From positions 179,385-243,384 of the forward strand of contig DAOUDP010000001.1 in assembly GCA_034431195.1 (NCBI GenBank): a stretch of 64,000 nt of DNA. Direction: 5' to 3'. The DNA comes from Dehalococcoidia bacterium (lineage in GTDB: Bacteria; Chloroflexota; Dehalococcoidia; GIF9; AB-539-J10). Shown one piece after another: positions 30,180-45,652 of this stretch. The notes below the pieces were generated by a model. That model ran no database searches. It was given only the letters and a program-made list of their open reading frames with translations, and was not told where the DNA came from. The translations under genes were made by a program, and so were the position numbers. Position 1 is the stretch's first letter, and the number at the start of each line of letters is the position of its first letter.

Positions 30180-32816
30180 ATGTTGGGCTGGTTTACCAAA
30201 TTAATCGATTCTAACGAAAAAGAGCTGAAGCGACTTCAACCTTTGGTATCCCATATAAACTCGCTTGAGCCCGATTTTGAAAAACTCACCGACGGTGAGC
30301 TTCGCGACAAAACAGATGAGTTCAGGACCAGACTAAAGGATGACGAGGATTTAGATGACCTCTCATCTGAAGCTTATGCTGCAGTGAGAGAGGCTGCCAA
30401 ACGAACGATAAAGCAAAGACATTTCGATGTTCAATTAATGGGTGGAGTTGTCCTTCACCAAGGCAAAATAGCTGAAATGGCAACTGGAGAGGGAAAAACG
30501 CTGGTGGCTACATTGCCGCTTTACCTCAACGCCCTTACCGGGGAAGGATGTCACTTAGTAACCGTCAACGATTATCTCGCGAAGCGTGATTGTAACTGGA
30601 TGGGGCCTATCTACCATGCCCTCGGAGTAAGCGTGGCATGCATCAATGCCATGCAATCTCCAGACCAACCTTCACCTTCTTTCCTTTATGACCCCGATTT
30701 TGACTCCGGAGACCCGAAATGGAGGCAGCTTCGCCCCATCACCCGCCGCGAGGCTTATGAAGCAGATATAACCTATGGCACAAATAACGAGTTTGGCTTT
30801 GATTACCTCAGAGACAATATGGTCCTGGACTTATCCCAGTGCGTCCAGCGGGAGCTTAACTATGCCATCGTAGATGAAGTTGACAGCATCCTCATCGACG
30901 AAGCCCGCACACCACTGATTATAAGCGGAGCTGCTGAAGAAGCCACCCAGAAATACTACACCTTCGCTCGGCTCGTTTCTCGCCTCAAAAAAGATGACGA
31001 TTACACCGTTGACGAAAAGACACGAACATGCTCACTCACGGAAATCGGCATCGGCAAGATGGAGAAGATGCTCAAGAGCGCCGGATTGCTTAAGGCTCCC
31101 AGCTTTTACGACCCCTCCAACTACTCACTCACCCGATATCTGGAGAATGCCCTCAAGGCTCATGCTCTGTTCAGAAGGGACAAAGACTACATGGTTAAGG
31201 ATGGGCAAGTTATCATCGTTGATGAATTTACCGGAAGGTTGATGTTTGGCAGAAGGTATTCTGAGGGCTTACACCAGGCTATCGAAGCCAGGGAAGGTGT
31301 AAAGGTACAGCGGGAAAGCATCACTTTAGCCACCATCACCTTCCAGAACTATTTCCGCCTGTACCAGAAATTAGCGGGGATGACTGGCACCGCCGCCACC
31401 GAGGCTGAAGAGTTTCACAAGATTTATAAATTGGAGGTGGTGGTTATACCCACCAACAAACCCCTGGTCCGCACTGAACATACTGACCAGGTTTACAAAG
31501 ATGAGAAGGCCAAGTTTGAAGCTGTCGCCAGAGAAATTGAGCATTGGCATAAGCAAAAAAGACCGGTGCTCATTGGCACAACCTCCATTGAGAAATCGGA
31601 GACGTTAAGCAACTTATTAACCAGGAAAGGCGTACCTCACCAGGTGCTGAATGCCAAGCATCATGAGAAGGAGGCAGCCATTGTTGCTCAGGCTGGTTGT
31701 TTAGAAGCAGTAACTGTAGCTACAAATATGGCTGGACGCGGTGTGGACATCATTCTTGGAGGCAATCCTGAAAAACGTGATAGCAAGGGATGGCTTGAGG
31801 AGCATAACAAGGTGGTTGAACTTGGCGGCCTCCATATTGTAGGCACTGAGCATCATGAAGCCAGACGCATTGATAACCAGCTCCGCGGCAGAGCAGGGAG
31901 ACAGGGAGACCACGGCAGTTCCCGCTTCTTTGCCTCTTTAGAGGACGAAGTTGTCCACCGCTTCGGCGGCGACCGCATCGGAGGACTTATGCAATGGGCT
32001 GGCCTGGGAGAGGATAAGCCTCTCGAGCATCCTATGGTCAGCAAGGCGATGACAAATGCCCAAGTGCAGAGCGAGGGATATAACTTCGATATTCGCAAAC
32101 ACCTTGTTGAGTATGATGATGTAGTCAATCAGCATCGCGAGGTAATTTATGACGAAAGGAAGAAAATACTGAGCGGTGCCGACCTTAAGGCAAATATAAT
32201 GTCTATGATTACAGATGAAATTCAAACCGTGGTGGACGCTCATATCAACCACAATTTAAGTGAGCCCGATTTATCAGGATTGCGTGAAGACATTTCCGCC
32301 ATTTTCCCCTCACCACCTGACATTGCCAGCCTTTCTTCTGTCATTGCAAGCCGAAGCCCTGAGCGAAGCGAAGGGGCAGCGAAGCAACCCGAGTTTGACA
32401 GCAAGGAAATTGCCGACAAGCTAACCAATTACGCCATTGATCTTTACGAGCAGAAGGAGCAGGAAATAGGTGCCGAAAACATGCGCCTTATCGAGCGTAT
32501 GGTAATGCTTCGCGTTATTGACCGCTTATGGATGGAGCATCTTACCACCATGGAGGACATGCGGCAGGGAATAGGCTTGCGAGCTGTGGGACAGCAAAAC
32601 CCGCTGGTAGTGTACAAAAGGGAAGGAGGCATTCTTTTTGATGGTCTTCTGGCTAGCATCCAGCATGATGTCGTCCGCAGCATCTATCGGGTCAGCCTGG
32701 TTAAAAAAGAGCCGCCACTCAAAAAACAGGCTGTAATAGCCGGTAAGAAAGTGGGCCGCAACGACCCCTGCCCCTGCGGGTCAGGCAAGAAATATAAACA
32801 CTGCTGCGGAAGGTAG
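30180..32816 (+). CDS. secA: preprotein translocase ATPase SecA
   Basis: 878 aa with DEAD-like motor motifs and a C-terminal zinc-binding [14 protein letters not shown]. Confidence 0.95.
32785..32813 (+). repeat. direct repeat copy A (the native secA 3' end); attL-like
   Basis: GCAAGAAATATAAACACTGCTGCGGAAGG recurs at 34410-34438 with a single mismatch. Confidence 0.8.
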
Positions 32817-32824
32817 GATTAGGT

Positions 32825-33802
32825 ATGGGGAATCATGTACTACTTGTAAGTAGAGAGCATTTTAATAAGTGTCTTAAGTATGGAATATATGGTGCTCCCT
32901 CTCACCCACTTGAGAGAATTAATTCGGAAATTATAGCTGGTTCTGAAGCTATTAAAGCAGGAGACTTCATATTCTTCTATGTTAAAAACATTGGAGTATA
33001 TGGTTTGTGGAGAGCAACAAGTCGTCCGTTCTTTGACGAGACTGATATTTGGGGTGAAAAAGACCAGAAGTATCCTTATAGGATCTGCTTCGCACCCTCA
33101 ATTAGGTATTTCTCAAAGCCAATTGCCCTTAGTGATGTTTTAGATTTGCGAGATAGGGGAAAGATATGGACATTTGATTTAGGAGCTATCCGCGCAAAGA
33201 ATCACAATCCGCTAACCACTGATGAAAGCAAAGACTTAATACGCCTTTTCCTAAGGAATAATCCTATTTTTCATTCAGTTGCATCCATACCAGAACCGTA
33301 CCCAGCAGGTAATATCACACTGCCATTAAGCCTAGAATCAGATAGTAGGGGACGTATAAGATATGAGGGCTTCTTAAATGCTTGGTTTATGAGGAGTTTT
33401 GTTGATGGTAGATTCAAGGAAATCATTGGCGAATATAGAGATTTTCTAAACTTTGTCCCTACCTCTTTTAATAAAGTAATGGATATTTTTCTTACGCATG
33501 TCACCTCAGTTGACGGTGTTGATATCCTTCATAAATTTACTTGCATCGAGCTAAAAACAGGAATATGCACTGAAGAAGATTTGAATCAGATCATTAAATA
33601 CGAAAATTGGCTCGTAAGGAAGCTAGCTAATGGTGATAGTGAAATGGTCCAAAGCGTCCTCGTTGCATTCGATTTTCAAGACAAAGTATTGGAATATGTG
33701 CAGAAGAGAAGAACGATAGAGGAAAAGACAGTCAGGTTGCTAAAATATCGAGTGACTAAAGAACAAAACGATATTATATTAACTGAAATTGAATTCGGAT
33801 AG
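32825..33802 (+). CDS. EVE (PUA-like) domain fused to a PD-(D/E)xK nuclease; candidate modification-dependent (type IV) restriction endonuclease
   Basis: N-terminal AGSEAIKAGDFIFFYVKNIGVYGLWRATSRPFFD resembles the EVE/PUA-like GD-x-hFFYHS...G core; C-terminal VDGVDILHKFTCIELKTG fits a D...E-x-K motif; low GC. Confidence 0.55.
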   Translation: MGNHVLLVSREHFNKCLKYGIYGAPSHPLERINSEIIAGSEAIKAGDFIFFYVKNIGVYGLWRATSRPFFDETDIWGEKDQKYPYRICFAPSIRYFSKPIALSDVLDLRDRGKIWTFDLGAIRAKNHNPLTTDESKDLIRLFLRNNPIFHSVASIPEPYPAGNITLPLSLESDSRGRIRYEGFLNAWFMRSFVDGRFKEIIGEYRDFLNFVPTSFNKVMDIFLTHVTSVDGVDILHKFTCIELKTGICTEEDLNQIIKYENWLVRKLANGDSEMVQSVLVAFDFQDKVLEYVQKRRTIEEKTVRLLKYRVTKEQNDIILTEIEFG

Positions 33803-34289
33803 GAGGTTTGACGCAATGTCGGATGAAGCTATCACCGGAGTTTACAACTCTGACATTTCTGATGACGCTATTCATGAGCTTGCTCCGTCTATCCTTTTGA
33901 GCGAACAGAGTTCAGAGTTCACGCTTAACCAGGGTAAATATGCCTATCGGGTTAAAGGGGGGAAGGATGGACACCTATACTATAAAAAGAGGGCTAACGA
34001 CAGTTGGATCCTTATTGCAAACTGGTGCCTTTATGGTCTTTATATTGTAATCCGTTATAGGAAACCATTATGGCTAAGGCCAATGTATCGGAGCTTGTTT
34101 AGCAAAATGAATTTTGTTTCTATCACCTTCAGCGACCATAGTATTGAAGCGATGGGCACAGATGGACAAATTTTAAGAGGTAGACGGCTCCGCCTCAGTC
34201 CTCCTTTTGCTTTTGAAGAAGTTATGATGGAGAAGTTTGGTTATTCCCTACAGAAGGCGGAAGTGCTTCGATCGAAATTGGATTTGTGA
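33789..34289 (+). CDS. hypothetical protein; start possibly at 33816. Its 3' end overlaps a frameshifted remnant of the small gene at 36631-36843
   Basis: ORF only; the C-terminal AEVLRSKLDL resembles the N-terminus DVVEEFLDCEL of the 36631 gene. Confidence 0.3.
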   Translation: MNSDRRFDAMSDEAITGVYNSDISDDAIHELAPSILLSEQSSEFTLNQGKYAYRVKGGKDGHLYYKKRANDSWILIANWCLYGLYIVIRYRKPLWLRPMYRSLFSKMNFVSITFSDHSIEAMGTDGQILRGRRLRLSPPFAFEEVMMEKFGYSLQKAEVLRSKLDL

Positions 34290-34320
34290 TTTAATTGTTG
34301 AAGTGAAACCCTCCAAAGAT

Positions 34321-34389
34321 TTTTGCCAGTATGTTGAGGACGATTATTACGAGTGGCTGAAGGATAACTTCAAGTCCTTCTTCGACCAT
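34321..34389 (+). repeat. direct repeat copy B (small-gene fragment); B' at 36727-36793
   Basis: About 69 bp of similarity, mostly synonymous differences. Confidence 0.75.
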
Positions 34390-34409
34390 GGAAATCTAGA
34401 CCGGGAGCA

Positions 34410-34438
34410 GCAAGAAATACAAACACTGCTGCGGAAGG
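34410..34438 (+). repeat. direct repeat copy A' of the secA 3' end
   Basis: GCAAGAAATACAAACACTGCTGCGGAAGG versus the secA end; 28 of 29 identical. Confidence 0.8.
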
Positions 34439-34621
34439 GGAACATAATTCCGAGGGGCTAATTATAATGGAAGCTTGCTTAGGCATTACTATGTTGATAA
34501 ATGCGAAAAGTCTTTCGCTATGCTTGCCACCTTGATTGTTGGGATGGGGAGGAGATTTTAGAGGAGATAAAGGTATGAAAGGTTACAAGGGAAAAAGAAT
34601 AACTTATGGAGGTGCAATAAA

Positions 34622-35629
34622 ATGGAACGAGATTCAAACTTTCAGATGCTGTCTTGGTTTACAGATCAACATAGAATGGGAAATCTCGATTTAGAGCCTC
34701 CGTATCAAAGAAAAAGTATTTGGAATAATGACTACAAAGTTTATTTCATTGATACGATTCTTCGGAACTTCCCTTGTCCAACCATATTTCTAGCAGTTGA
34801 GCTTAGTTCAAGTGGACTTACTAAATACCATGTTGTGGATGGTAAGCAAAGACTTTTAACGGTTTTCGAATTTGTAAACGATGAGTTCACTACATCAGAG
34901 ATATACAGTGACCCTGATTACGCCGACAAGTATTTTTCACAATTGCCAGCCAAGGTAAAGACTCGTTTCTGGGGATACAAGTTTACAATAGAATATCTTA
35001 AAACCGAAAGTAGAAAAGACTTAAATGATTCTTTTGACAGGTTGAATAGGAATGTTGCTCGGTTAAATAAACAAGAACTGCGACATGCGCGACACGCTGG
35101 AGCATTCATCACCTACGTAACCCAGTTATCAGACGATCCATTTTGGAAAGATATGGGGATATCTACTCCCTCAAGAATAAGAAGAATGCTAGATATTGAA
35201 TATGTTTCGGAGATATTTTTAGTGGTTATGCACGGAATCAAAGACGGTAGAGACCATTTAGACGAATATTTTGCAGTGTACGATGATGAAATTCCAGACT
35301 TAGAAGAAAACAGAAAAAAATATGAAGTATGTAAGGATCTCATTGCAAAGCTAGATGTATACAAAACACGGTATAGCAACCTTGCAGACCTCTATTCTTT
35401 ATGGTCTGGGATGTCTGAATTATATGACGAGAATGGTGGTAGTTTAGAGATAGCCGTTGAAAGAACAAGAACAAAACTATTACAGTTTGCAGATAGAATC
35501 CGAGGTGACGTAGATGAACAACGAGTTCAAGCCTATGCATTGGCAGTGTTGCAGGCGTCTAATAGTATTAAAAGTAGACAGACTCGTGAGAATATATTGA
35601 AGGGACTTATTGTTGTAAAAAGAAAATGA
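34622..35629 (+). CDS. DUF262 (GmrS/ParB-like NTPase domain) protein
   Basis: EPPYQRKSIWNN...FIDTILRNFPCPTIFL...HVVDGKQRLLTVFEF, the DGQQR-type motif of DUF262; a second block FDRLNRNVARLNKQELRHA; low GC; 4-nt overlap with the downstream gene. Confidence 0.8.
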   Translation: MERDSNFQMLSWFTDQHRMGNLDLEPPYQRKSIWNNDYKVYFIDTILRNFPCPTIFLAVELSSSGLTKYHVVDGKQRLLTVFEFVNDEFTTSEIYSDPDYADKYFSQLPAKVKTRFWGYKFTIEYLKTESRKDLNDSFDRLNRNVARLNKQELRHARHAGAFITYVTQLSDDPFWKDMGISTPSRIRRMLDIEYVSEIFLVVMHGIKDGRDHLDEYFAVYDDEIPDLEENRKKYEVCKDLIAKLDVYKTRYSNLADLYSLWSGMSELYDENGGSLEIAVERTRTKLLQFADRIRGDVDEQRVQAYALAVLQASNSIKSRQTRENILKGLIVVKRK

Positions 35630-36585
35630 TAATTCCCAGATCCATTGAAGCTTTCTACGGCAAAGTAGCAGAGTCTTTATATGTTCTTAAGTACAACATT
35701 GACCAACCACTTAAGAATATAGCTGATTCATTAAATATCAGGTATGTCCACGCGAGGATAAAGCCAAAAGAGAGCTTGATGGCCAAAATAGAGAAAGAAG
35801 GGTGTAAGAATCCAGCCGATGAAATTGAGGATCTAGTCGCTTGTAGATTAATCGTGAATAACATATCTGAGATAGGTTATGTAAAAGAGAAGATAAAACA
35901 ACTATTCAATATAGAGGATGAAAAATCTAAAAGATCTCGCTCACCAAATGAATTTTTGTACGATGCCATTCATTTAATATTAAGTTTTAAAGACAGTCCC
36001 TTTATAAGTAATAAGGACATCTTAGGGAAGAAATTTGAATTGCAAATTAAAACCAGCCTACAAAATGCATTAGATGAAGTAACACGCGGCGAAATTTATA
36101 AAACAGATATATTAACCTGGGAAAAAGATAGGACTGCAAGCGAGTTAAGAGCAAATCTTGAATTACTAGATACATTGTTAAAGGATTTCCCGAAGATAGT
36201 TGCTATTCAAGAGGAGAGAGAATATGAACTATATCAAAATAGGAACAAGATAATAGCTTTACTTAAAGATGTTTGGAGCGCTGAAAAATTACCTGACGAT
36301 TTACGGAGGGCAAGCATTGTTATTGAGGAGTACCTGAAACTGGCTGAGGCAAAGGTAGAAGATTTATCTAGTTGGCTAAATCTTGACAGGTACAGAAATG
36401 CTGTTAAGGCTGTCTCAATTACTCCGTGTCAAATAATATTGATTATCTTGTTCCTAGAAAAAGGGGCTTTCCTTAACAACGTAAGAAGACAAAATAGATG
36501 TTTGCTCATAACCGATGAGATGATAGATATATGTCCCGAACTTAAGGAAATAGACCTATCATATCGCGTGAACATCGATTACTAG
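35626..36585 (+). CDS. RelA/SpoT-homolog (RSH) synthetase-domain nucleotidyltransferase (small-alarmone-synthetase/toxSAS-like)
   Basis: Syn motifs: RYVHARIKPKESLMAKIEKEG (basic ATP-binding motif), IEDLVACRLIV (D-x-x-G/A-x-R-h-h), YDAIHLILSF, FELQIKTSLQNALDEVTRGEIYK (E-h-Q-I-R/K-T...YK). Confidence 0.75.
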   Translation: MIIPRSIEAFYGKVAESLYVLKYNIDQPLKNIADSLNIRYVHARIKPKESLMAKIEKEGCKNPADEIEDLVACRLIVNNISEIGYVKEKIKQLFNIEDEKSKRSRSPNEFLYDAIHLILSFKDSPFISNKDILGKKFELQIKTSLQNALDEVTRGEIYKTDILTWEKDRTASELRANLELLDTLLKDFPKIVAIQEEREYELYQNRNKIIALLKDVWSAEKLPDDLRRASIVIEEYLKLAEAKVEDLSSWLNLDRYRNAVKAVSITPCQIILIILFLEKGAFLNNVRRQNRCLLITDEMIDICPELKEIDLSYRVNIDY

Positions 36586-36630
36586 GGACTCAGCAAGGGT
36601 TAACCAAATACTTATACAAGGTAGCAAAAG

Positions 36631-36843
36631 ATGCTTGATAGAGATGTAGTTGAAGAATTCCTTGATTGTGAACTTGAGGGTATAGAAATTCCTGCGGATA
36701 TTTCCAAGGAACAGCTTGTAGAAGCTTTTTGTCAGTATGTTGAAGATGATTACTACGAATGGCTGAAGGATAACTTCAAGTCGTTCTTCGACCACTGCAA
36801 CCCAGATTGGGAGTGGATAAGGGAGAAGCTTAAGAACCAGTGA
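36631..36843 (+). CDS. small hypothetical protein (70 aa), intact copy of the duplicated small gene
   Basis: ORF with a partial diverged copy at 34237-34400; its stop overlaps the polX start. Confidence 0.45.
   Translation: MLDRDVVEEFLDCELEGIEIPADISKEQLVEAFCQYVEDDYYEWLKDNFKSFFDHCNPDWEWIREKLKNQ
36727..36793 (+). repeat. direct repeat copy B'
   Basis: Matches 34321-34389. Confidence 0.75.
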
Positions 36844-38564
36844 GAAACACCGCTATCGCCAAAGTATTCAGCGATATAGCAGACCTCCTCGAGCTCAAAG
36901 GTGAGAACCAGTTCAAGATTCGTGCTTACCAGAAGGCAGTTCGCGCTATTGAGCACTATCCCAAGGAAATAAGAATTATGATTGACGAAGGGGAGGACTT
37001 GAAGAGTATCCCCGGGGTAGGAGACGCAATAGCCAAAAAAACAACCGAACTGGTGAAGACGGGAAAACTGGAATACTACGAGAAACTTAAAGCCGAGTTT
37101 CCCGAAGGGATAACTAATCTCCTCGATATACCGGGGATTGGCCCAAAGACAGCTAACAAACTCTGCTCCGAACTGGGGATAACTTCAGCAGATAGCCTGG
37201 AGCAAGCGATAAAGGATGGCAGCGTGGCCACGCTGTTTCGTCTTGGTGAAAAGACCGCCAATAATATCCTCCAGCAAGTCGAGGCCTCCCGCCGCAAGGA
37301 CCAACGCATCTCTATCGGGGAGGCTTTGCCTATCGTCGAAGAAATACTCAGTGCTCTCAACTCTGTCCCCGGGGTGAGAAATCTAACTTACGCTGGAAGT
37401 CTGCGCCGCTTCCGAGAAACATTGGGCGACATTGACCTTATGGGCACCGTCGATAACCCCCAGAAAGTTATGGACGCTTTTGTCTCGTTACCTATTGTAG
37501 GGCAGGTTTTAGTCCAGGGACCCACTAAATCAAGCGCCATAGTCTCCGGTGGTTTGCAAGTCGACTTAAGACTGGTAGAACACGAGGCTTTTGGGTCACT
37601 GCTTCAATATTTCACCGGAAGTAAACAACATAATATTTCTTTAAGGGAAAGAGGGCGAAGGCAAGGATTAAAATTGAGCGAATATGGCATCACCGATATT
37701 GCCACAGATAAGCTGGAGAAATTTGCTGATGAAGAGAATTTTTATCACCGACTGGGGATGCAGTATATTCCCCCCGAGCTTAGAGAAGATCAAGGCGAGG
37801 TGGAAAAGGCTGAACGGGGAGCCATCCCCAGGCTTGTAGAGGTGTCCGATATAAAGGGAGACCTCCATATGCACACCGATTGGAGTGATGGGCATAGCTC
37901 CATCAAGGAAATGGCTCTAGCGGCTAAAAAATTAGGGTATCAGTATATTGCCATCACCGAGCATTCCGGTGGGCGCGGCATCGCCCACGGGCTTGATGTT
38001 GAACGGCTAAGGAAACAGATTGAGGAAATCAAAAAGGTCAATGAATACATAGATGGCATTCAAGTGTTCAGTGGCATCGAGGTTGATATCCGAGCAGATG
38101 GGACTCTGGATTTACCCCACGAAATTTTGGCAAAGTTGGATGTAGTTATCGCTGCGGTGCATTCAGCGATGAACCAAAGCGAGGGAAAAATGACCCAGAG
38201 AGTACTAAGCGCTGTGGAGGACCCCGATGTCGACATTATTGCCCATCCTACCTGTCGTCTTCTGGGCGAGCGTGAACCTATAGCCCTTGACCTGGAAGCG
38301 GTTTTTCGCACCGCTGTCAAGAACAACAAAATCATGGAGATAAATGCCATGCCCGACAGACTTGACTTGAATGATATTCATGCCTCCAGGGCTAGAGAAC
38401 TAGGTGTGAAGCTTGCTATCGAGACCGATGCCCATGCTGTCTCCCACCTTGATTTTATGAGGTTTGGAGTCGGCATGGCGCGGCGAGCCTGGTGTGAGCC
38501 TCAACATATAGTAAATACTCTGCCCCTGGCAGACGTGCTCACCTTCCTGAATGTGAGCAGATAA
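36840..38564 (+). CDS. polX: DNA polymerase X family protein with a C-terminal PHP phosphoesterase domain
   Basis: N-terminal NxxIAxxFxxIAxLLExxGENxFKIRAY helix-hairpin-helix region; PolX palm; C-terminal PHP (DLHMHTDWSDG...). Confidence 0.9.
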   Translation: MRNTAIAKVFSDIADLLELKGENQFKIRAYQKAVRAIEHYPKEIRIMIDEGEDLKSIPGVGDAIAKKTTELVKTGKLEYYEKLKAEFPEGITNLLDIPGIGPKTANKLCSELGITSADSLEQAIKDGSVATLFRLGEKTANNILQQVEASRRKDQRISIGEALPIVEEILSALNSVPGVRNLTYAGSLRRFRETLGDIDLMGTVDNPQKVMDAFVSLPIVGQVLVQGPTKSSAIVSGGLQVDLRLVEHEAFGSLLQYFTGSKQHNISLRERGRRQGLKLSEYGITDIATDKLEKFADEENFYHRLGMQYIPPELREDQGEVEKAERGAIPRLVEVSDIKGDLHMHTDWSDGHSSIKEMALAAKKLGYQYIAITEHSGGRGIAHGLDVERLRKQIEEIKKVNEYIDGIQVFSGIEVDIRADGTLDLPHEILAKLDVVIAAVHSAMNQSEGKMTQRVLSAVEDPDVDIIAHPTCRLLGEREPIALDLEAVFRTAVKNNKIMEINAMPDRLDLNDIHASRARELGVKLAIETDAHAVSHLDFMRFGVGMARRAWCEPQHIVNTLPLADVLTFLNVSR

Positions 38565-42902: not shown

Positions 42903-42921
42903 GTTTAATGATTCTCCCTAC

Positions 42922-43107
42922 TCAAGGCTTTGGAATTTCCAAGTCTTTGCAGATCTTCTTTATCAAAAAGTCATTAATCTCTCGATGGCGAGGGACAGTG
43001 GAGGTTCTGTTATTGGCTGGATTATAAAATACACTGTGCTTGCTACCTTCTCGGAATAATTGGCATCCTTGGTTATAAAGGTGCCTCAGCAAATCCCTTC
43101 GTTTCAT
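42922..43107 (-). CDS. hicA: HicA-family toxin
   Basis: 61 aa LLRHLYNQGCQLFREGSKHSVFYNPANNRTSTVPRHREIN, the YcfA/HicA pattern. Confidence 0.7.
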   Translation of the reverse strand: MKRRDLLRHLYNQGCQLFREGSKHSVFYNPANNRTSTVPRHREINDFLIKKICKDLEIPKP

Positions 43108-43116
43108 TCAACGGGC

Positions 43117-43338
43117 TCATATCTCTATGGTGATAGGCTCTTTGGTGACGACGGTATCTGCTTGGCTTTTTGCTGCGAGGTCCCTATTGGCTTCGATAAT
43201 TAAGTGCAGAGCTTCTTTAAGGTTTTCTCTCACCTCTTTCAAGGTTCTCCCCTGGGTATTTACCCCAGGAAGCTCCTCCACATAACCGATATACCAGTTA
43301 CCCCTTTTCTCAATAACGCTGGTGAACTCTCGTTGCAT
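43117..43338 (-). CDS. hicB: HicB-family antitoxin (UPF0150)
   Basis: 73 aa EKRGNWYIGYVEELPGVNTQGRTLKEVRENLKEAL, the HicB/UPF0150 pattern; upstream of hicA. Confidence 0.7.
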   Translation of the reverse strand: MQREFTSVIEKRGNWYIGYVEELPGVNTQGRTLKEVRENLKEALHLIIEANRDLAAKSQADTVVTKEPITIEI

Positions 43339-43350
43339 CTTCTCAACTCC

Positions 43351-44442
43351 TTACTCTGTTTTAAGGCGGTAGCGCTTCATTGGCTCAATGACTTCAAAAA
43401 CCACTTTATCCCCCACTTTTACTGTCGGGTGCTGTCTATACCATCCTGCTAGCTTTGCTTGGATGTAAGTCCCCCCATGTGGGTCACCAATCTGAGTTCC
43501 TTCTTTGTCTGAAGTGACATAAGTTTCGATTTCACCCACGTCTGTCTCCAATTTAAAAGGAACCTTATAGCCAGGGAAAAAACTCCGTTCAGACTTTGGG
43601 ATCACAAAAAGGTGAAATTTTATGAATGAAGGGTTTCGCACAGTAATTTCGATTGTCGGAAGCTTGTCTCCTCTTATCCAACTTTTGGCCTGTTCTAGCG
43701 AGCGGAGGCCTCGAGCAATTTCGGCCCTCTGAGGGAGCTTCCCGATAGAGTATTCCCCCTTTTTTTCGTATATTTCATAATCACCCACAATATCGACTAG
43801 CGTATACCCCTCACCTTGCCAACCAATTTCCCTCTTTTCCTCTTTTTTGTCTTCGTATAATGGCCCAAATAAATGTGCATGTACATCCAAACCAACGCCT
43901 GCTCTAATAAAAGTTTGAAACTCTACAATTTTAATTTGAGAGTGGGCAAGTGCGCCGATAGCTTCGTCTAACTGCTCTGTGCGTTTTTCTATAATGATTG
44001 TTACCACTGGTGATTTTGAGAGCAGGTCTGAAAGGAATTTATAGGTTTCGGTTGTCCCAATCGCCTTTTTTAAGCGAAGTCTAACAAACTCATCGCTATC
44101 TATCTCCTGGTAGATAGCACTAACTATGTCTTTTTGAGTTGAAGGATTTTTAATCCCGTTAATGAACCTGCTAACTTGCGGAACTATATGTTCATATAAT
44201 GGATGAGAGGATAGTTCTACTTCAACGATGTGCCAATGAGGTTCGTCTCCAAAAATAATCACATATCCATCAGGTATGGAGCCAATCCCCGATTTCGTTC
44301 TTAGCTTATGTTTTATATCAAGGTATATAGATTGCTCGCCGAAGATGTCTTTGGCGTGCTCCTTGACGACTTTCTCAAAGTCATATTCATTTTGAGGTGT
44401 CCACGCTTCATACCTCACGCCATCTATCACGACTATTCGCAT
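43351..44442 (-). CDS. hypothetical protein, possible restriction-endonuclease-like N-terminal domain
   Basis: IPDGYVIIFGDEPHWHIVEVELS resembles PD-(D/E)xK/HsdR_N-like cores; otherwise unassigned. Confidence 0.35.
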   Translation of the reverse strand: MRIVVIDGVRYEAWTPQNEYDFEKVVKEHAKDIFGEQSIYLDIKHKLRTKSGIGSIPDGYVIIFGDEPHWHIVEVELSSHPLYEHIVPQVSRFINGIKNPSTQKDIVSAIYQEIDSDEFVRLRLKKAIGTTETYKFLSDLLSKSPVVTIIIEKRTEQLDEAIGALAHSQIKIVEFQTFIRAGVGLDVHAHLFGPLYEDKKEEKREIGWQGEGYTLVDIVGDYEIYEKKGEYSIGKLPQRAEIARGLRSLEQAKSWIRGDKLPTIEITVRNPSFIKFHLFVIPKSERSFFPGYKVPFKLETDVGEIETYVTSDKEGTQIGDPHGGTYIQAKLAGWYRQHPTVKVGDKVVFEVIEPMKRYRLKTE

Positions 44443-44446
44443 CGGC

Positions 44447-45652
44447 TTATCTTTTACCTCGCGTTTTTTTGCTTAAAAGCTTCGCCACTTTGTCCAGAAC
44501 TTTGTCAGCCACCTCTTTTTTGTGAAGAAGCGGCAGGCTTTCAGCTTTGCCACCCTTGCCAATTATGGTTACTTGATTGCTATCGGTGCCGAACCCACTA
44601 CCCTCAGCAGTAACGTCATTAGCTACAATAAGGTCAAGGTTTTTTCGTCGCAATTTTCGTGTGGCATTTTCCACCAGATTTTCACTTTCAGCGGCAAAAC
44701 CTACTCTGATGAAATCTCCTTTAACCTCGCCCAAAATATCTGGCGTGCGTTCCAACTCCAGGGTTAATCCAGCACCTTCTTTCTTAATCTTTTCTTTGGC
44801 TTTAGTCTTGGGGCGGTAATCCGCTACCGCTGCTGCCATAACTAAAACATCAGCCCCAGAAATAGCGCTTCTCACCGCCTGAAGCATCTCTTCAGCAGTG
44901 CAAACATCAATTACTTCAGCACCAACAGGCCTGGTGAGCAAGGTGGGACCGGTAATCAACGTTACCTTAGCTCCCCGATCACGAGCAGCCTCAGCAAGGG
45001 CATAACCCATCTTCCCTGAAGAGCGGTTAGTGATAATACGAACCGGGTCAATAAATTCTTGCGTGCCACCAGCAGTAACCACGATATGCCTATCGGCAAA
45101 GCTTCCTCCCCTACCCAGTACTTGAGAAATAACACCTATTATCTCCACAGTATTGGCAAACCGTCCCAGACCCTCCACCCCCGAAAGCAACTTGCCGAAC
45201 TTTGGTCCTACAAAGATGAAGCCACGCTTCTTTAGCCTGGACACATTCTCCTGTGTAACGGGATTCTCATACATGTTCACATCCATGGCTGGCGCTATTA
45301 CTACAGGTGCATTGGTTGCTAACACCGTGCAACACAGCACATCATCAGCAATGCCAGTAGCTAACTTAGCAATGACATTAGCTGTGGCTGGAGCGATAGC
45401 AACTACATCAGCAGCTCTAGCCAGAGCAATATGGGTAACATTAAGTTCCGAAGAGGCATCAAACATGTCGGTCGCCACAGTCCTTCCGGTAATAGCACGA
45501 AAACTGAGCGGAGATACAAACCTGGTAGCCTTTTCAGTCATAACTACATCCACCTTGACCCCTGCCCTGCTGAGCTGGCTAGCAATATCCACTGCCTTAT
45601 AAGCAGCGATGCTCCCTGTTACTCCCAGGATTACCGTCTTTCCTTCAAGCAT
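44447..45652 (-). CDS. coaBC: bifunctional phosphopantothenoylcysteine decarboxylase / phosphopantothenate-cysteine ligase
   Basis: KTVILGVTGSIAAYKAVDIASQL flavoprotein N-terminus plus a C-terminal CoaB domain; 401 aa. Confidence 0.9.
   Translation of the reverse strand: MLEGKTVILGVTGSIAAYKAVDIASQLSRAGVKVDVVMTEKATRFVSPLSFRAITGRTVATDMFDASSELNVTHIALARAADVVAIAPATANVIAKLATGIADDVLCCTVLATNAPVVIAPAMDVNMYENPVTQENVSRLKKRGFIFVGPKFGKLLSGVEGLGRFANTVEIIGVISQVLGRGGSFADRHIVVTAGGTQEFIDPVRIITNRSSGKMGYALAEAARDRGAKVTLITGPTLLTRPVGAEVIDVCTAEEMLQAVRSAISGADVLVMAAAVADYRPKTKAKEKIKKEGAGLTLELERTPDILGEVKGDFIRVGFAAESENLVENATRKLRRKNLDLIVANDVTAEGSGFGTDSNQVTIIGKGGKAESLPLLHKKEVADKVLDKVAKLLSKKTRGKR

Follow-up and report, generated by a model that had tools for sequence, protein, structure and literature searches.

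Results

Two alternative slot occupants are stacked between secA and polX

We analysed a 64,000-nucleotide (nt) stretch of the genome of an uncultured Dehalococcoidia bacterium (GenBank assembly GCA_034431195.1, contig DAOUDP010000001.1, positions 179,385 to 243,384 of the forward strand; hereafter the window, with positions counted from its first letter), in which an accessory island of two gene cassettes lies between secA and a small gene that directly precedes polX. Comparison with related loci showed this island to be two alternative occupants of one chromosomal slot, termed allele A and allele B, stacked in tandem. We consider it probable that the slot is a recombination hotspot of a Dehalococcoidia lineage and that the window's arrangement arose when allele A was stacked on allele B by one non-homologous join. 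In the interval between secA and the small gene, alternative defence or toxin-antitoxin cassettes would thus replace one another or pile up.

The order of the elements is secA tail, ORF1 and ORF2, a piece of the small gene followed by a copy of the secA tail, the DUF262 and RelA/SpoT genes, the intact small gene and polX. The initial annotation, made from the letters alone, had already described this order, including its reversal in the middle junction. The features are as follows.

30180 to 32816, + strand: secA, the left conserved flank, with Pfam SecA domains and a SEC-C motif.
32785 to 32813, + strand: secA tail, repeat copy 1, functional, codons KKYKHCCGR.
32825 to 33802, + strand: ORF1, first gene of cassette 1 (allele A), with an EVE/PUA-like N-terminal domain.
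33816 to 34289, + strand: ORF2, second gene of cassette 1, a conserved hypothetical protein of 157 amino acids (aa).
34316 to 34407, + strand: 3' remnant of the small gene, codons ~31-61, the right end of which is the recombination joint.
34408 to 34409, no strand: filler bases CA, two bases at the illegitimate joint.
34410 to 34438, + strand: displaced secA-tail relic, a 28/29 match, without a stop codon at the secA position.
34467 to 34557, + strand: c13 pseudogene, a small Cys-rich gene split over three frames by frameshifts.
34622 to 35629, + strand: gene of a DUF262/GmrSD_N (ParB-like) protein, first gene of cassette 2 (allele B).
35626 to 36585, + strand: gene of a RelA/SpoT-type nucleotidyltransferase, second gene of cassette 2.
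36631 to 36843, + strand: intact small gene (70 aa, acidic), right conserved flank, its stop overlapping the polX start.
36840 to 38564, + strand: polX, family X DNA polymerase with a PHP domain (Pfam), right conserved flank, 96% nt identity to locus L082.

The GC content is 0.33-0.43 over 32.8-36.8 kb as compared to 0.47-0.52 in the secA and polX flanks, in agreement with the AT richness noted at the outset. No recombinase, integrase or transposase domain was found by Pfam in any island ORF, as had been stated before; the window's other ~35 genes were not exhaustively annotated for recombinases. Precomputed Pfam assignments revealed no recombinase in the slots and arrays of relatives, and Rfam, tRNA, promoter and terminator scans of the island gave nothing above background.

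The middle junction is a non-homologous joint

At 34410-34438 there is a second copy of the final 29 sense bases of secA (32785-32813), in which 28 of 29 positions are identical, that is with the single mismatch first reported. Matches of at least 21/29 to this tail were absent from 1.07 Mb of shuffled related sequence and from the minus strand of any locus. The second repeat, a segment of the small gene, had also been recognized, with a length of 69 bp that proved too short: it spans 92 nt (34316-34407 and 36722-36813) at 85% identity. Ten of the 14 differences between the two small-gene copies fall at third codon positions, and the junction copy reaches up to 95% identity (over 81 nt) to the alleles of other strains, compared with 85% to the resident copy.

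For the comparison we used related loci with the identifiers L001 to L115; the small gene as query retrieved 80 genome loci. The window follows allele A (96% to L096, blastn) up to ...GACCGGGAG (GGGAG), ending at 34407, and then diverges. Where the window switches, allele-A genomes continue from the small-gene remnant into polX without duplication. The left edge of the junction copy coincides exactly with that of the allele-A remnant. Because the allele-A genomes L089, L096 and L102 share this left edge and run on into polX, the small-gene piece is an inherited allele-A pseudogene and not an attachment site, and only its right edge, at 34407, is a new joint. This joint, GGGAG-CA-GCAAG, is non-homologous and shows at most 2-5 nt of microhomology (GGGAG/CAG) together with two filler bases. 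The junction had initially been taken as the signature of a site-specific or circular-intermediate insertion; with the small-gene piece attributed to the allele-A remnant and a non-homologous joint at its one new edge, this reading is not supported. An origin of the small-gene piece from a distant donor together with ORF1 was also considered and rejected, the piece being 90-95% identical to the alleles of close relatives and the remnant being fixed in allele A.

To the right of the joint, the relic is followed by a decayed copy of the c13 gene. The segments MEACLGIT and FRYACHLDCWDGEE were identified with members of the c13 family as tblastn queries, at E values as low as 7.5e-9; the segment DKCEKS comes from the third-frame translation, and the region gave nucleotide matches to L074, L002 and L018. 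Since c13 stands directly after secA in many relatives (L012, L031, L074), the succession of relic and c13 pseudogene at 34410-34557 most plausibly represents a fossil junction of secA tail and c13, the former left end of allele B. In L083, a 49-aa ORF occupies the same position after secA. A 6-bp hairpin (GCAGCA...TGCTGC) is possible in the relic at 34406-34431 but not in the genuine tail; its z of -0.6 against shuffles is not significant.

Each allele occurs alone in related genomes

Allele A, in the order secA-ORF1-ORF2-small-gene remnant-polX and with no intact small gene, is found in L089-L095, L096-L101 and L102-L104. Alignment of the window with the ~140-nt gap of these loci showed a common spacer after ORF2 and then, in every case, a decayed 3' end of the small gene (from ~codon 31 onward) that leads into polX. 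ORF1 of L089-L095 is 97% identical to that of the window, and at the nucleotide level the window's ORF1 shows 99.2% identity to L115 and 96% to L096. In L115 the relic, ORF1 and ORF2 are 99.2% identical to window 32769-34154, in contrast to the 85% identity of its secA, and there is an intervening PIN cassette; cassette 1 has therefore moved recently between backgrounds. Allele B, the DUF262 and RelA/SpoT genes followed by the small gene, is present without allele A in L033, L008, L070, L005 and L013.

The slot is a core-gene-flanked defence hotspot

The order prs-secA-[variable 0.07-5.3 kb]-small gene-polX is found in more than 40 Dehalococcoidia loci. Nucleotide homology of the window with L082, L083 and L084 ends at 32813, the last sense codon of secA, and homology with the nearest strains (94-96% nt identity) resumes at 36617-36624, for L082 at 36617, 14 nt before the small gene. 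In the three nearest backbones, with 90-96% nt identity in the flanks, the content of the slot is wholly different from that of the window. The slot of L082 carries a PIN pair, a ParE pair, an HNH-methylase-HNH group and DndB, that of L083-L088 the 49-aa ORF and an EVE-nuclease, and that of L002 a PIN pair, c13 and an EVE-nuclease. The initial annotation had proposed to compare this interval among relatives, with unvarying content as the outcome that would speak against an island; the variation seen is strong. Its description of an accessory, AT-rich, recombinase-free island of two separable cassettes at the secA 3' end is likewise supported.

With the same slot, variable defence-type content and no mobility genes, the feature is a defence hotspot flanked by core genes, the defence function of the slot genes being predicted from their sequences. 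It is an ordinary kind of feature, new within the class of defence hotspots, in which the recombination scars are unusually legible.

A probable imported tract and the proposed history

The ancestry of the flanks was followed by a count of informative sites in a three-way alignment of the window, L082 and L096, in which ~80 breakpoints were tested. Upstream of ~31300, the window agrees with L082 at 184 sites and with L096 at 92. Between 31300 and 32813 the preference is reversed (58 sites with L096, 31 with L082), and to the right of the island the window again agrees with L082 (310 sites against 136 with L096). The switch at ~31300 gave a Fisher p of 1.5e-7 before correction for the ~80 tested breakpoints. 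Sliding identity revealed no sharp recombination tract; the three-way count alone gave a significant switch. These data fit a scenario in which an L082-like chromosome, probably with allele B in its slot, received ~31.3-34.4 kb, namely the 3' part of secA, cassette 1 (ORF1 and ORF2) and the small-gene remnant. The last ~1.5 kb of secA (from ~31300) thus appears to have come in with cassette 1.

The starting chromosome would have been L082-like, with allele B in its slot, and would have taken up DNA from an allele-A strain, making allele A the later arrival. At the left end, homologous recombination would have occurred inside secA, ~1.5 kb before the stop codon. At the right end, where no homology was at hand, the incoming DNA would have been joined illegitimately just before the recipient's last 29 secA bases, with use of a few bases of microhomology (GGGAG/CAG) and addition of the two filler bases. 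Because the incoming DNA brought its own tail, secA would have stayed intact, and the recipient's old tail would have become the relic. Such a process corresponds to homology-facilitated illegitimate recombination and would require neither an integrase nor a circle. Its signature is seen in the L096-like tract of ~31300-34407 on one side and the joint with microhomology and filler on the other.

Several observations weigh against this history. The ancestry signal is mosaic and not clean. No close relative of allele B was found (best 83% nt identity), so the recipient's allele-B state is deduced only. The joint has no independent assembly support: the 24-mer across 34407/34410 had no exact match in JGI metagenome contigs, and L001, the only other contig of this strain, starts at 34778, past the joint. 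The edge of the window's relic coincides with the relic edge of a zinc-ribbon cassette found in other loci, and the left edges of relics elsewhere are clustered, which random illegitimate joining does not predict. The sequence GGGAG-CA/GCAAG resembles GGGAGAACCA/GCAAG, found in L026 downstream of the zinc-ribbon gene and in front of the same -29 relic. The relic may thus be older than the event, with the joint made at the GGGAG microhomology in the 3' flank of a zinc-ribbon gene.

secA-tail relics across the clade and other routes of entry

Extra copies of the secA tail were found in ~20 related loci, with up to four copies per locus: L002, L005, L007-L010, L019 (three extra), L026, L057, L066, L070, L082 (two extra), L096-L100, L102-L104, L111, L112 and L115. 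All have the same orientation and lie downstream of secA, and nearly all keep the frame and the stop codon; no copy was seen upstream of secA or on the other strand. The idea of the secA tail as a preferred point of recombination is strengthened by these loci. The relics separate compact cassettes, namely HTH (helix-turn-helix)+PIN, a second type of PIN pair, HicBA, RelB/ParE-type pairs and the zinc-ribbon gene. In the other arrays, a genuine secA-downstream junction of another strain matches each relic along with what follows it (for at least 40 nt beyond the stop), and the novel sequence is to the left of the relic. It would follow that a new cassette arrives next to secA and brings a tail of its own, while the previous tail stays behind. 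The left edges of the relics, in bases before the secA stop, lie at ~-62, -47, -42 to -44 (in ~five cassettes) and -29 to -32 (in the window and the zinc-ribbon cassette), though these events may not all be independent. The same PIN cassette precedes at least five different downstream contexts. A search anchored on the last 10 nt of secA, which was too strict, gave three plus-strand matches of 9 nt against three control matches of 9-13 nt; a continuum of relic lengths cannot be claimed because short relics are at background level. A literature search revealed no report of secA-tail insertion sites.

The clearest array is that of L019 (880-4600), where four secA-tail copies separate HTH+PIN, HicB+HicA and RelB+RelE/ParE-like pairs ahead of an EVE-like gene, the whole being surrounded by REP-like palindromes (GACCCTTTAGGGTC). 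A full array is also found in L005 (5900-10300), in the order PIN pair, relic, PIN pair, relic, DUF262-RelA/SpoT-small gene. Here, no secA is present within 6.8 kb upstream; that region holds housekeeping-looking genes, by eye a lysA-like decarboxylase and others, and it seems that a rearrangement has detached the hotspot from secA. A gene upstream of this array, c44, was considered as a recombinase and dropped: by eye, from its sequence and neighbours and with no domain search, it looks like a housekeeping decarboxylase of the lysA type. In L066 (8690-8790), two fragments separate a PIN cassette from the -29 relic, a short one of the secA tail (CCTGCGGAAGG) and one of ~30 nt from the 3' end of the zinc-ribbon gene, of which an intact copy lies upstream; the fragments look like nested scars of successive events.

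The arrays could also have been built by a recombinase encoded elsewhere, with the secA tail as its attachment site in the manner of integrons, integrative mobile elements exploiting Xer (IMEX) or ssrA islands. Cassettes would then be excised as circles and integrated into the last 30-45 bases of secA with a replacement tail, and the window's island would be one such integration. The number of relics (~20 loci, up to four copies in L019), their direct orientation downstream of secA between toxin-antitoxin cassettes, the clustering of left edges at -42 to -44 and at -29 to -32, and the recurrence of one PIN cassette before at least five contexts speak for such a system, as does the 100% identity of the two L082 relics to the window's tail over 41-44 nt. 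We nevertheless regard it as rather unlikely. No array yielded a recombinase, and the relic regions have neither dyad symmetry nor an attC-like hairpin (z mostly -0.3 to -1.1); single-stranded DNA folds of ten junction strands shared no such structure either, with z from +0.1 to -2.5 and mostly weaker than -1.2. The edges are not unique, since -62, -47, -43 and -29 all occur, and the further, shorter relic of L066 with its zinc-ribbon fragment has a different breakpoint. The joint of the window attaches a truncated pseudogene and not a cassette end, and would be illegitimate under any model. The broader proposition that the last 30-45 bases of secA are the clade's dedicated landing pad, into which small cassettes of toxin-antitoxin and defence genes are inserted serially, each with a replacement tail, either by a recombinase encoded at another locus or through sequence-specific breaking and joining, seems to us unlikely; if true, it would mean integron-like arrays without an integron.

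The same illegitimate joint could also have formed in the opposite direction, in an allele-A recipient that received allele B from 29 bases before the donor's secA stop, with the right anchor in the small gene or polX. The geometry fits equally well, and no part of the window is more L082-like than the small gene and polX. The L096-like tract 31300-34407, however, is flanked on either side by L082-like sequence, which agrees better with a 3-kb import of allele A than with one of all that lies to the right of the tract. In the other arrays it is the relic with its downstream sequence that is the older junction, and the near-identical copy in another background is one of cassette 1. We therefore hold this direction to be quite improbable.

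A local tandem duplication of the segment from secA tail to small gene, followed by replacement of one cassette, had been offered in the initial annotation and does predict a small-gene piece followed by a secA tail; it is now very unlikely, since the junction copy lacks codons 1-30 and has exactly the left edge of the remnant in allele-A genomes that carry no duplication, most of its differences from the resident copy (10/14) are at third positions, it is nearer to other strains' alleles, and more steps would be needed than for a single joint. An assembly chimera of co-occurring allele-A and allele-B strains is hardly to be believed either. In its favour are the metagenomic source of the assembly, the break of the strain's other contig at 34778 and the lack of any other match to the junction 24-mer; against it, the two sides of the joint share 2-5 nt only and thus no k-mer for a graph assembler to cross, the relic has unique flanks and is not identical to the genuine tail, and similar relic junctions occur in many independent assemblies. 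Stacking of allele A on allele B by one non-homologous join is thus the reading that we retain.

Predicted products of the cassette genes

Cassette 1 is a predicted defence module built around an EVE-domain (modified-base-reader-type) protein. The Pfam EVE match of ORF1 itself is weak (E=0.007); its homologues carry PF01878 and are annotated as EVE-domain proteins. The C-terminal region of ORF1, read by eye, appears nuclease-like. ORF2 has no Pfam match but is a genuine conserved gene: 338 homologues share 64-95% identity with it, and throughout L089-L104 it stands after ORF1.

Cassette 2 is likewise a predicted defence module, with a DUF262 protein and a toxSAS-like nucleotidyltransferase. 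The DUF262 protein matched Pfam GmrSD_N (5e-19, residues 20-158) and, in PADLOC, NsnA (3e-35) and PD-T4-2_A (6e-19). Its homologues in L070, L005, L008 and L033 share 72-84% aa identity with it, and no record was retrieved when the exact protein was looked up. The second protein matched Pfam RelA_SpoT (2e-13) and PADLOC PDC-S33; its similarity to YwaC (6FGK) and 7ZTB was weak and marginal (~1e-3).

The 70-aa small protein

The family of the small gene has more than 1150 homologues. The protein has no Pfam match and four predicted helices; its AlphaFold2 model has a predicted local distance difference test (pLDDT) score of 69, and Foldseek with this model found no match in the PDB. The protein is 60-96% conserved across L002-L081 and also occurs on an Asgard archaeal chromosome (L068) and in contigs binned to other phyla. 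Its immediate upstream neighbour, encoded on the same strand, nearly always has a restriction or defence role by type: EVE-nuclease c7 (18 loci), ORF1-type EVE (13), methylase+HNH (12) or DUF262+RelA/SpoT (7), more rarely DUF262+HEPN (2), a GHKL ATPase pair (2), AbiEii (2) or DndB (1). In allele A the small gene is a pseudogene. L020, L024, L032 and L050 have two tandem paralogues (~40-50% identical) upstream of polX. In eight loci (L014, L028, L038, L047, L059, L063, L075 and L080), a conserved ~90-aa ORF takes the place of polX after the small gene and corresponds to the N-terminal helix-hairpin-helix domain of polX; the gene after this ORF is the one that in the window lies downstream of the metallo-beta-lactamase gene.

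Other variable spots

A second variable spot lies at window positions 42903-44474, between valS and coaBC, and consists of a 1.6-kb segment with a 363-aa ORF (43351-44442) that has no Pfam match. The segment is absent from L082, L083 and L096, and L102 has a RAMA-domain gene there. After coaBC, L082 (17943-18395) and L083 (14068-14520) carry a 150-aa ORF comprising only the catalytic domain of a tyrosine recombinase. This ORF was considered as the recombinase of the secA-polX slot and rejected, as it belongs to a different variable spot and is absent from the window, where tblastn with the L082 fragment found nothing and coaX is present instead.

Discussion

Defence hotspots flanked by core genes are known as such; how cassettes enter and leave hotspots that lack mobile-element genes has so far mostly been inferred. 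In the present locus, the scars (displaced secA tail, c13 pseudogene, small-gene remnant) and the separate occurrence of the parental alleles in close relatives make it possible, for an uncultured lineage, to retrace one acquisition at nearly single-base resolution. The repeated secA tails provide a clade-wide marker with which acquisitions can be counted and ordered, and permit a test of whether hotspots are supplied by ordinary recombination or by a dedicated site-specific system. The parts most worth following are the clade-wide arrays of secA-tail relics and the small protein, a candidate for follow-up on account of its position beside many restriction and defence genes in several phyla.

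Comparison with known systems

Cassette 2 resembles GmrSD/DUF262 type IV restriction enzymes and toxSAS/CapRel-type toxins in that it encodes a GmrSD_N protein together with a protein of the RelA/SpoT nucleotidyltransferase fold. It is not a canonical GmrSD system because the DUF262 protein gave no DUF1524 match and thus lacks the DUF1524 (His-Me finger) nuclease half; in PADLOC, the two-gene pairing matches generic candidates only (NsnA-like, PDC-S33).

The relic arrays share with integron cassette arrays and clusters of attC sites lacking integron-integrases (CALINs) the co-oriented, small, mostly promoterless and toxin-antitoxin-rich cassettes split by a recurring short sequence. They differ in that this sequence is a secA coding fragment, conserved in sequence and not in structure and devoid of an attC-like hairpin, and in that neither intI nor attI is present.

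Tandem ssrA islands are a feature of Dehalococcoides. More generally, integrative elements target and restore the 3' ends of conserved genes, both tRNA/tmRNA and protein genes (PMC7192596). As in those elements, incoming DNA supplies a new gene tail, the displaced tail becomes a direct repeat at the far end, and units accrete in tandem with the newest adjoining the gene. The present units differ in having no integrase within or beside any of them and in their size (0.5-1.7 kb, with relics of 29-62 nt), and the joint of the window involves a truncated pseudogene.

The proposed history is closest to homology-facilitated illegitimate recombination, which has reportedly been described for naturally transformable bacteria by de Vries and Wackernagel and by Prudhomme et al., both in 2002. 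Common to both are the one-sided homologous anchor, here secA, the joining of the other end through a few GC-rich bases of microhomology with filler, and independence from a dedicated recombinase. In the window the process is deduced from sequence alone, and the join would have fallen inside the tail of the anchor gene, giving a short duplication and not a deletion.

As a hotspot, the slot resembles the core defence hotspots (cDHS) of Pseudomonas aeruginosa (PMC10250203) and the defence-island hotspots of E. coli (PMC10121019), which are fixed slots between conserved core genes with content that is replaced from strain to strain, of restriction, defence and toxin-antitoxin type, low in GC and with no mobility genes inside. 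It differs in its location, between secA and the small gene-polX pair of uncultured Dehalococcoidia, and in having kept the scars, secA-tail relics and pseudogene remnants, that record the order of acquisition.

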